64,000 bases of DNA from an uncultured Methanoregulaceae archaeon (GTDB lineage: Archaea > Halobacteriota > Methanomicrobia > Methanomicrobiales > Methanospirillaceae). A program made the position numbers. The DNA is taken from positions 64,001 through 128,000 of the forward strand of contig OY970061.1 of assembly GCA_963705255.1 (NCBI GenBank), in the 5' to 3' direction. Below, in pieces: positions 48,001 through 51,000 of this stretch. How positions within the stretch are numbered: the first letter of the stretch is position 1; each line of letters opens with the position of its first letter.

Positions 48001-51000
48001 TCATCCTAGAGGTCCTGATGAACCTCTTCGGTGTCGAAGATTGATATCTTCTCACCAGCCTTCGACTGCCCCAACGGGGAGCCACCGTAACCAGATGGTC
48101 AGGGGTAGCTGGAGAAAATTCTCTGAAAGAGAATTTTCAACTCGCTCCGCGGCGGTTCAACCTCCTTGCCCCGCCGTGCTCGAAGAATTCTGGCGATTTC
48201 TTCTCATCCTCGGGGTTCTGATAAACCCCTTCGGAACTCGAAGTTCCTGCGAACTTCTCACACTTCGCGGTTCTGACGAACCACTCATAAGTCGAAGTTG
48301 CACTTCTCCACAGCCCTGCGGGCTGTCCTCGGAGAGGTCCTGAGGCGGGGAGTTCTCGTAACTGAACGATTATCATGGTTTCGGAGTGAATTCGATTGAT
48401 TCATGTCTGTTTTCGTTGAGAAGAGTCCCTGGCCGAACAGCAGTAAATATCCGAAACCCGCTGATCCGGGCCGCCAGGGAAACGGACGGCAGATGTACCG
48501 GAAAAGGCCGCCGTTTACCCGGAAGAAAACCTTTTCCCTGTCCCTGCAAAAATACCAGTATGGTTCGGAAGCGGGAAGGGAGGACCCTATGAGCTGGCAG
48601 TACTCCCCCCTTGCGCTTGTCCTTGCGATTTCAGCAGTTCTTCTCGGGTCATTCACGCTCTTTGCATGGAAACGCCGCCATATCCCGGGGATAATCCCGG
48701 TTCTTGTTCTCTTCGCTGCCGCAACAGTCTGGCTGGGCACATCCGCGTTCTCGCTGGCGCATACTGATCTCACAACAGCAATCTCGATGGACCGGCTGGC
48801 GTATCCTGCAATCGTCACCATCCCCGTTGCGTACCTGCTCTTTGCACTCTGGTATACCGAGCATGACAACCGGCCTTCCCGTCTCTTCCTTGCGCTCCTT
48901 TTCGTGATCCCGGTCCTGTCGGTCTGCCTTGTTCTGACGAATGATTTTCACCACCTGTATTATACCGGCTTTTCTGCCATCGGGGGCCCGAGGAATTCTC
49001 TTATCTGGACATTCAGCCGCGGCCCGCTCTTCTGGATCACCGCGTCCTACTCGTTTGTCCTTATCCTGACGGCGTTCCTCCTCTTTGTTCTCCGCTACCG
49101 GACAGTGGGAACGCTGTTCCGTACCCAGATATACCTTATCCTTGCAGCGGGTTCTGTCCCCTTTCTTGCAACCCTTTTCTATATCTTCGACCTCGGACCC
49201 GATCCTGGGTTCGACTGGACCCCGGTTACCTTCGTGATCTCGGGCTTTGCACTCATTGCTGCAACGCTCAACTTCGAGCTCTTTTCCCTGCAGCCCCTGA
49301 CGCATTCCCTCCTCGTAAAGACGATGAAGGATGGCGTTGTTGCTACAAATGCGGACGGCCGCATAACGCTCATCAACCCTGCCGGAACAGCTCTGCTCGG
49401 GGTATCTGAAGACGAGGGGGTGGGCCGGCAACTGGCCAGATGCGTGCCAGGACTGGCACGCTTTGTCGCTCCTGCCGGGACACCGGGAGTGGAGGGGGGC
49501 GAGATCACGCTTCCAGCCCGGGGTTCCCCCCGCATCTATGACGTCCAGACCGTTACCATCCCGTCTGAAGGATATCATGAGGGAGGCCATATTCTTACGT
49601 TCCGCGACGTGACGGACAGGAAAAATGCCGAGACCGCTTTCCGGAAGGCGAACTCCCAGCTCAACCTCCTCTCCAGCATCATCCGGCACGATGTGAAGAA
49701 CAAGCTGACCGCCCTCTTCATCTACCTCGACCTCGCTTCAGACCAGGAGGTGGGGAACGGGCAGGGGGAAGACCTCGCAAAAGCACGCGGTTCGGCAGAA
49801 GGGATCCTGACCCTTGTCGATTTTACCCAGAAATACCAGGACCTCGGTGTTGCCGCGCCGTCCTGGCAGAACGTCGGGGAGCTCCTGAAGGAAGCAGCGG
49901 GCCATCTCGATTGTTCCGGTGTCCGGATCGTTGACGATACCCGGGGGCTTGAACTGCTCGCAGACAAGCTCTTCGAGAGGGTGATCTACAACCTCCTCGA
50001 CAACGCGCTCAGGTATGCACACGGGATGCAGACATTTTCCGTCAGGTACACCCTGAAGGACGGGGCCCTCGTCCTCTATGCGGAAGATGACGGCCCGGGA
50101 GTTCCGGCCGGTGAGAAGAAACGGATCTTTGAGCGGGGGTTCGGGAAAAATACCGGGCTCGGGCTCTTCCTCGTCAGGGAGATCCTCGGGATAACGGGAA
50201 TAACAATCCGTGAGAGCGGAGAACCGGGGAAGGGGGCGAGGTTCGAAATGACGGTCCCTCCGGGAGCGTTCCGGTTTTCAGGGCAGGACGCGACCGGCGG
50301 GGTCCTGCCCGGCTGATGGTAGTACCGCTGCCGGCGTGAAGGGGCTCATTCTTTCGGTAAATGGAGGTCGGATCCTGAGGGCAGTGCTGACTGTCAGGGA
50401 TTTTCCGGTTCGGTATCTTCGGGAGAAGTATCAGCCTCAAGGACAAACGACCCCCGGTACCCGCATTTCTTGCAGAGGTATACCTGTCCGATGTACCCGC
50501 CGGCCACCGGAAAGATCTGGTCGCTTTTACAGGAAGGGCAGTAGAGCATGGTCAACAACTCTATATGAGCACCCGGTACAAAAACTAGTGCAATGAAGAA
50601 GGTTGTCATCTCGCTGGGCGGCTCCATCCTGATCCCGTCCCTCGAAAACCATACGATCAGGGAATACGTTCCCGTCCTGAGGAAGATCGCAAAGCACTGC
50701 CGCCTCTACGTTGTCGTCGGGGGAGGTGGCGAGGCCCGCAGGTACATCAGCATCACCCGCGAACTCGGGATCGACGAGGGCACATCCGATGAGGTCGGCA
50801 TCCTCGTTACCCGGCTGAACGCGACCATGCTGATCGCGGCCCTTGGCGAAGACGCGTACCCGAAAGTGGCGGAGAGCCACGCGGAGGCAAAGAAGTTCGG
50901 GGAGTCGGGAAAGATCGTGGTGATGGGGGGTATCACTCCCGGCCAGACGACCGATGCGGTGGCAGCGGTCCTCGCCGAACGGGTCGGTGCCGCGGTCTTC

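Follow-up and report, generated by a model that had tools for sequence, protein, structure and literature searches.

How does a segment of 58 nucleotides (nt) come to stand in one copy of an intergenic repeat and to be missing from a second copy that otherwise matches it base for base? We addressed this question in a 64,000-nt stretch of DNA (the window; contig OY970061.1, positions 64,001 to 128,000, assembly GCA_963705255.1) from an uncultured Methanoregulaceae archaeon, whose genome, here called G000, is a single contig of 2.6 Mb with 54.6% G+C that is 89.5% complete by marker genes. The window contains copies A to F of a family of hairpin repeats, and an initial annotation had proposed that copies E and F differ by the gain or loss of a discrete cassette at CTTCGAG junctions. 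We consider it probable, at roughly 0.6, that the 58-nt segment is one unit of a genus-restricted mosaic hairpin repeat, similar to BOX and BIME (bacterial interspersed mosaic element) repeats, which would be reshaped by ectopic gene conversion together with hairpin-assisted slippage; in the same reading, the difference between E and F would be a change of one unit, at whose border CTTCGAG is an unavoidable homology that need not be a recognition site.

Copies E and F match exactly over 101 nt (48237-48337 and 51441-51541), and the match extends beyond the indel, where a further 12 nt, TGCCCCGCCGTG, are identical in the two copies as well. Thus, once the 58 nt at 48179-48236 are taken out, E and F are the same over 113 nt, an identity that lies far beyond chance. 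The extra segment is flanked on both sides by CTCGAAG (CTTCGAG on the element strand), of which F carries a single occurrence. This 7-nt direct repeat is not an independent signal, because CTTCGA is the hairpin foot in which all units of the family end, and it also precedes the unit in 11 of 17 copies, the remainder following a GC-rich stem (4/17), TTAGA (1/17) or TCCGA (1/17), so that an indel of one unit carries the repeat by construction. The relatives of the segment that had been pointed out in loop 2 of B, loop 2 of E and copy C align with the unit in loop 1 of E over its full length, with 78% mean column identity and 40 invariant columns, the paralog in B being shifted by one base relative to its first description (to 6325-6382); the sequence GGCTGTGGAGAAGT..ACTTCGA was likewise found both in loop 2 of B and in loop 1 of E and F. 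As a description of these copies, the initial annotation was therefore accurate in each of these respects, including the exact match, which it had placed at 101 nt, and the 58-nt insert with its bounding repeat.

The family to which these copies belong has a regular anatomy, built on a framework of two GC-rich hairpins. Hairpin 1 (CCCCGCC ... GGCGGGG) encloses an inner hairpin, GCCTC-TCC-GAGGC, and is joined by a linker of 13-40 nt to hairpin 2 (CCGCCGC ... GCGGCGG). The 5' motif of the framework, CCCGCCTCAGGG, has 42 exact and 67 one-mismatch matches in G000; a 3' stem anchor follows within 300 nt in 45 matches, one of them chance-like in coding DNA and one broken, and four further matches are real copies with a diverged anchor, bringing the total to about 47 framework elements. 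Between the constant stems, loop 1 measures 23-267 nt and loop 2 15-178 nt, the space being filled by hairpin units, and loop 1 is empty (23-24 nt) in 22 of the 45 anchored matches. Units are found in either loop as well as in arrays that lie outside the framework, and such an array can hold both orientations. An iterated similarity search recovered 236 repeat regions covering 42,518 nt, or about 1.6% of the genome, and many of these regions are parts of larger composite elements that have about GGCTCTGGAGAAATC at their two ends as an inverted repeat. Half sites of this sequence number 37 + 34 in G000 and make five pairs spaced 131-523 nt apart; the left arm of copy E resembles such an end only in part.

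The commonest unit component, which we call the Y hairpin, has the form GA-GAAG-variable stem-loop-variable stem-CTTC-GA, and we counted 200 examples with both hexamers exact and a clean inner hairpin, and 306 at one mismatch in one hexamer. Among these 306 hairpins, the foot is conserved (GAGAAG in 252, CTTCGA in 238) and the tip is variable with compensating changes: 1208 of 1296 pairs in the variable stem (93%) are Watson-Crick, 27 are G-T, 15 are A-C and 46 are of other kinds. The loops, by comparison, are conserved and strand-specific, most often ATCA (67), GAA (30), GTCA (29) or GCA (17). The 58-nt unit, M58, consists of an X hairpin followed by a Y hairpin, and an alignment of its 18 copies in G000 shows compensating changes in both stems, with 20 G-T against 3 A-C cells among these related, non-independent copies. 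Y hairpins carry a tandem GA/GA clamp and X hairpins a GAA/GA internal loop; in a comparison with kink-turns, a regular 3-nt bulge with a flanking canonical stem was not consistently seen. When the E element is folded, its modules form separate hairpins, and the element strand reaches z values of -7.3 as RNA and -7.9 as DNA. Across the whole genome, many Y hairpins have GNA triloops closed by C-G, for example GCGAAGC. Hairpins with such triloops are unusually stable mini-hairpins in DNA, which hints that a single-stranded DNA form may matter.

With regard to genomic setting, of the 193 repeat regions that are intergenic, 76 are flanked by convergent genes and 25 by divergent genes; each class of gap makes up 22% of all intergenic gaps by crude calls of open reading frames (ORFs). 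The full E element, used as a query, found matches in 14 of 18 other genomes of the genus and in none of 12 genomes from other genera of the order, and the M58 unit alone found matches in 15 of 60 other genomes of the genus; by these searches, the family is restricted to one methanogen genus.

Turnover of the family at fixed loci is real and fast, as seen in a comparison of G000 with G037, a genome of the same genus whose flanking sequences are 95-97% identical. We compared contig C6 of G037 (174,627 nt), the first 400 kb of its contig C1 and the region of copies A and B on its contig C4. Collinear blocks in the 575 kb taken from C6 and C1 are separated by 47 gaps of at least 12 nt, 29 of which contain family motifs; none of the six small indels inside aligned blocks falls in the family. 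All five window copies that could be compared (A, B, D, E and F) differ structurally between the two genomes, the region of copy C giving no alignment. In A, the inner hairpin is of another subtype in G037, and loop 2, empty in G000, is expanded. B in G037 is short of 220 nt that comprise one half of stem 1 and almost the whole of hairpin 2, with CGG at the junction. E in G037 shows a deletion with CGGG at its junction, and the M58 unit is missing from its loop 2; these microhomology deletions ignore unit borders. F lacks its first 37-nt module in G037, at a junction with no microhomology. Entire loop contents are also replaced: loop 1 of D in G037 is unrelated to that of D in G000 and agrees with that of F in G000 at 90 of 92 positions, and loop 1 of E in G037, unrelated to that of E in G000, agrees with that of B in G000 at 107 of 110 positions.

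Beyond the window copies, the same comparison revealed a 53-nt unit in an otherwise empty hairpin 1 of G037 (1-nt microhomology), a 62-nt unit placed in inverted orientation between two others (CG), a 55-nt unit ending at CTTCGAC and a difference of about 399 nt with GTTCTTCGA(Y)T at each end. Whole composite elements are present in only one of the two genomes at at least seven sites (genome positions 166,0xx; 1,697,5xx; 1,816,6xx; 2,071,6xx; 239,6xx; 1,890,4xx; 2,100,6xx), and half of a framework stem is gone from several alleles. The tip of framework hairpin 1, after CTCCGA(G), is a repeated site of insertion, and identical three-unit junctions are encountered at unrelated loci.

Two further observations were made in the course of this comparison. 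Copies D and E lie 23.5 kb apart in inverted orientation, and what fills their loop 1 appears to have changed places between G000 and contig C6 of G037, the DNA between them being collinear in both genomes; two successive inversions or a reciprocal conversion could give such a swap. Separately, near 51370, just beyond F, G037 has a 78-nt insertion that G000 does not have and that represents a third type of small repeat (CCCCCCTCTTGC.CCACCAG - mini hairpin - CGGGGCGCA..), and at genome position 2,043,3xx a repeat of this third type carries insertions of 51 nt and 55 nt in G000 only.

If units were moved by a mechanism dedicated to TTCGA, as the initial annotation implied, breakpoints should cluster there, and they do so only in part. 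By chaining all-against-all matches of the repeat regions, we obtained 130 distinct paralog indels with at least 85% identity over at least 22 nt on both flanks, whose lengths peak at 56-58, 110-120 and 172-178 nt, a period of one unit; at two loci, one unit is tandemly duplicated exactly (repeats of 81 nt and 52 nt). TTCGA fits both junctions in 23 of the 130 indels, about seven times the 3.4 +/- 1.3 expected when events are moved at random within their own regions, and the 5' edge of GAGAAG fits both in 11 (1.8 expected); the other 107 lack a TTCGA fit at both ends, and those outside the TTCGA and GAGAAG counts fit neither. A similar picture emerged from the points, 418 in all, at which shared tracts (identity of at least 94% over at least 40 nt) end abruptly; 13 of them fall exactly at TTCGA (3.1% against a background of 0.9%, about 3-fold) and 46 at offsets 0 to +4 from it, 333 having no TTCGA within 12 nt; the 5' edge of GAGAAG is depleted of tract ends, with 0-2 of 418. 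At orthologous loci, junctions lie at offsets of -1 to +4 around TTCGA with 0-2 nt of microhomology, and their left sides differ (GGAC, CCGAG, CTTCG, GGGGA). Unit borders are thus real and tend to follow TTCGA, yet most junctions lie elsewhere. The picture of discrete cassettes holds as a description of the architecture, in that units are discrete, reused and turned over at fixed loci with borders enriched 3' of TTCGA; it does not extend to the deletions at CGG and CGGG or to a tract of about 90 nt, described below, that overruns its unit. A site-specific mechanism at TTCGA is not supported, given the misfitting indels, the variable offsets, the mixed orientation of units and the failure to find a Y1 transposase in G000 and G037.

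A third allele of E bears on polarity. It was found on a metagenome contig (L070), the only locus that the metagenome scan yielded, with flanks about 97-99% identical by eye, and it has an intact B-type loop 1 and, like G037, a loop 2 without the M58 unit. Because two of the three alleles agree, E in G000 is the derived form in both loops. Its loop 2 is identical over about 90 nt to a copy near genome position 622,400-622,500; the tract begins inside a Y hairpin and takes in the unit together with the 3' half of stem 2, stopping 12 nt past that stem, with clearly lower identity on both sides. Such a tract is the signature of gene conversion, unlike the insertion of a unit at its own borders. 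For the unit in loop 1 of E, neither G000 nor any of 60 other genomes of the genus offers a donor above 90% identity. F in G000 and D in G037 lack this unit in loop 1 and share a junction, and F in G037, which is without its first module, has the same unit-less junction. The absence of a donor favours an old unit that dropped out of a form later spread by conversion; which of the two took place, a gain in E or a loss in F, we infer rather than observe.

Contigs from four runs (X1-X4) were also inspected at this locus, and in all four they break across element E. In X1, one contig (depth 8.5) has a joint that skips 48179-48238, which is most simply copy F aligned to E; other joints, such as one that skips 152 nt and has TATG between its sides and one that skips 65 nt and has TTATCA there, are on short contigs not tied to a locus. 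From 48431 to 48530, in the interval that separates E from the downstream gene, X2-X4 have unrelated sequence instead (98 nt skipped, 91 others in between), and L070 is much diverged.

[quoted passage not shown] Ectopic gene conversion between copies, with exchange points in shared stems and feet, would act alongside tandem duplication of units and slipped-strand deletion between short repeats, the last being favoured by hairpin formation; palindromes are known to stimulate deletion in Escherichia coli. Since units share one foot, and feet and framework stems recur at about 240 loci, homology-dependent host processes can add, remove and exchange units. Conversion through framework stems and feet would explain the replacement of whole loops, the tract of about 90 nt in loop 2 of E and the recurrence of the same three-unit junctions at unrelated loci. 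Which enzymes act, we can only infer.

Several points weigh against this proposal. Unit borders are enriched just 3' of TTCGA, about 7-fold when both ends are considered and about 3-fold for tract ends, with depletion at the GAGAAG edge; the hairpins are far better kept, at 93% Watson-Crick pairs, than paralog identities of 80-90% predict, and their loops are conserved and strand-specific. The excess of G-T over A-C pairs hints that a single-stranded form is recognised or selected. As for the unit in loop 1 of E, simple parsimony favours its gain, as F in G000 and both D and F in G037 are without it, and neither simple copying nor simple loss fits cleanly. The mechanism is, moreover, one proposed from the comparison of sequences.

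These same features are what would be expected if a hairpin-specific enzyme, either a transposase of single-stranded DNA or a recombinase, recognised GA-clamped hairpins and moved X+Y units to positions 3' of YCGA, preferably at hairpin tips, as in the chemistry of REPIN/RAYT, IS200/IS605 or integron attC systems. Such an enzyme would account for the asymmetry between TTCGA and GAGAAG, the conserved feet and loops over a covarying stem, the GA clamps, the very stable GNA triloops, the repeated insertion at the tip of framework hairpin 1, the excess of G-T over A-C pairs both in Y stems and among the related unit copies, and a unit in loop 1 of E that has no donor with flanking homology. We nevertheless regard it as unlikely, for the junctions wander over offsets of -1 to +4 with varied left sides, most paralog indels do not fit TTCGA at both ends, the identity tract in loop 2 of E overruns the unit borders, whole loops are replaced with exchange points in framework stems, and units are of mixed orientation within arrays. 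There is also no GTAG or CGTC tag at the hairpin end. For the Y1 transposase domain (PF01797), only 5 of 61 genomes of the genus give a match, and neither G000, at 89.5% completeness, nor G037 is among them, while the full E element matched 14 of 18 other genomes. A more specific form of the idea, in which X+Y pairs are mini-cassettes moved as single-stranded DNA between the tips of framework hairpins by a genus-specific enzyme, the frameworks serving as docking platforms, strikes us as rather improbable; were it correct, the apparent swap of loop 1 between D and E would be a product of the exchange.

We also considered an origin from IS200/IS605 elements, as palindrome-associated transposable elements (PATEs), and rejected it, since the three PF07282 matches, of which two exceed the cut-off, all lack family hairpins beside the ORF. 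The three TnpB-like ORFs (257-337 amino acids, apparently short or truncated) lie at C1:2543266-2544036, 2034955-2035863 and 1819759-1820769 of the genome; the last is upstream of a tRNA-like sequence, and none of the three is flanked by the hairpin family. With respect to MITEs, the composite elements have inverted ends (GGCTCTGGAGAAATC) and are present or absent as wholes at orthologous sites. No transposase-sized pair of these ends occurs in G000, the genome searched for an autonomous partner, and a comparison of filled with empty sites shows loose similarity only (TGAAA.., CATT.TTT) and no clean target-site duplication.

Alternatively, the framework helices could be the core of a structured RNA, with the units as expansion segments at the hairpin tips; selection on the RNA would then let whole hairpins come and go, and the RNA may perhaps bind a protein through its GA-rich internal loops. 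Folding is more favourable for the element strand (-178.7 kcal/mol, z -7.3) than for its complement (-162.1 kcal/mol, z -5.9), G-U exceeds A-C, the inner hairpin of stem 1 has compensated variants with TTCG, TACG and TCAC loops, and the expansions do sit at hairpin tips. An RNA function is hard to reconcile, however, with both unit orientations in one array, with whole elements that are present or absent between relatives, with alleles that have lost half of a framework stem and with numerous loci enriched between convergent genes. At gathering thresholds, Rfam matched only two tRNAs in the whole window, and no match was obtained for 47850-48450 even at E <= 1. We hold this explanation to be unlikely. 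Finally, the difference between E and F could be one isolated slippage deletion in F, between the two 7-nt repeats, that has no wider cause. This agrees with the hairpin-forming 58 nt between those repeats, the 113 nt of perfect flank identity and the lack of a unit donor above 90% identity, and is very unlikely, because the same unit-less loop and junction in D of G037 would need a second loss or a transfer and turnover across the family shows that exchange between copies is common.

Table 1. Copies and parts of the hairpin repeat family in the window (window coordinates).
Feature	Position	Strand	Remarks
Copy A	2962..3047	+	Minimal framework element, two empty loops
Copy B	6018..6395	+	Full framework element; loop 2 with M58 paralog 6325-6382 and GGCTGTGGAGAAGTGATAACTTCGAG
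Copy C	11090..11422	.	Array outside the framework, both unit orientations; M58 paralog on reverse strand, ~11097-11154
Copy D	24771..25045	+	Framework element; loop 1 B-type in G000, F-type in G037
Copy E core	47966..48352	-	Two framework hairpins
M58 paralog, E loop 2	47975..48031	-	Within ~90-nt identity tract, ~47956-48045
E framework hairpin 2	48149-48155 and 47968-47974 (stem halves)	-	
E framework hairpin 1	48344-48350 and 48169-48175 (stem halves)	-	Loop 1 ~48179-48328
M58, 58-nt X+Y two-hairpin unit	48179..48236	-	Loop 1 of E, not in F; 18 copies aligned
Direct repeat CTCGAAG (element strand CTTCGAG)	48179..48185	-	Foot of M58's own Y hairpin
Second CTCGAAG	48237..48243	-	Foot of preceding Y hairpin (GAGAAGTTCGCAGGAACTTCGAG)
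Copy F	51431..51554	-	Hairpin 1 alone, E's loop minus the unit; one CTCGAAG, 51441-51447

The window contains several features besides the copies and parts of Table 1. A tRNA-Pro gene lies at 51649-51723, about 95 nt from the 5' end of F. Direct repeats about 3 kb apart and 92-93% identical (10052-10167/13096-13211 and 9962-10017/13000-13055) probably lie in duplicated genes, unrelated to the hairpin family, and two pairs of direct repeats of 170-176 nt with 72-73% identity (44762-44937/50083-50258 and 55166-55335/56001-56170) are probably paralogous coding sequence.

Bacteria are known to carry modular intergenic repeats, BOX, BIME and NIME among them, and the BOX element of Streptococcus pneumoniae and S. 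suis (boxA - variable boxB - boxC) is the closest described architecture. In both cases, conserved outer parts surround variable tandem inner modules, and the modules fold on themselves, so that changes in copy number leave the rest undisturbed. An excerpt of one account describes two outer frames in S. suis that share the same inner modules (PMC3049150), and the two-hairpin framework and the composites bounded by terminal inverted repeats here share one pool of units in a comparable way. Unlike BOX, the family described here has many module types instead of one or two, nests them in both orientations in the tips of GC-rich hairpins, resides in an archaeon and shows extensive turnover at 95-97% flank identity, whereas the pneumococcal elements have been described as currently dormant.

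Other families share individual features. Like repetitive extragenic palindromes (REPs), BIMEs and REPINs, the family comprises hundreds of short extragenic hairpins with a conserved, non-complementary foot and mosaic clusters, depleted between divergent genes; in contrast to them, its foot is GAGAAG/CTTCGA with neither a GTAG nor a CGTC tag, no RAYT was found in G000 or G037, and its unit is made of two unlike hairpins (X+Y) and not of an inverted REP doublet. REPs are defined by GTAG or CGTC at the end of the palindrome and REPINs by a RAYT, and CGTC-tagged REPs have no known transposase (PMC3733652). The comparison with NIMEs rests on different units being parted by one short conserved repeat. 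NIMEs are arrays of different units of 50-150 nt, separated by the dRS3 repeat, at which units can recombine, and a phage integration system makes use of dRS3, an inverted-repeat site of 20 nt; in the present family, the shared sequence is instead the hairpin foot itself. Integron attC sites are similar in being foldable as single strands, with conserved ends and a variable middle, and in bounding discrete units. They differ in that units here are gene-free and of mixed orientation, with junctions at no fixed position, and that no single array lies beside an integrase, although no search aimed at integrases was made.

Full-text searches on Methanoregula, supplements not being covered, gave no description of such MITE-like or intergenic hairpin repeats; one paper mentions the genus only for its insertion-sequence content (PMC13343696). 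What sets the family apart among modular repeats is the archaeal host, the nesting of units at hairpin tips and a very fast turnover. It makes up most of the structural differences in the compared stretches of G000 and G037, and is useful as a strain marker; it is also a possible cause of assembly breaks, because contigs are fragmented across E in all four runs. If a dedicated enzyme did act on these hairpins, it would be a new kind of mobile DNA, and mini-cassettes exchanged between framework tips would amount to a gene-free system, similar to integrons or REPINs, in an archaeon without a Y1 transposase. The family further provides a natural system in which ectopic recombination and hairpin-driven instability can be measured in an archaeon.

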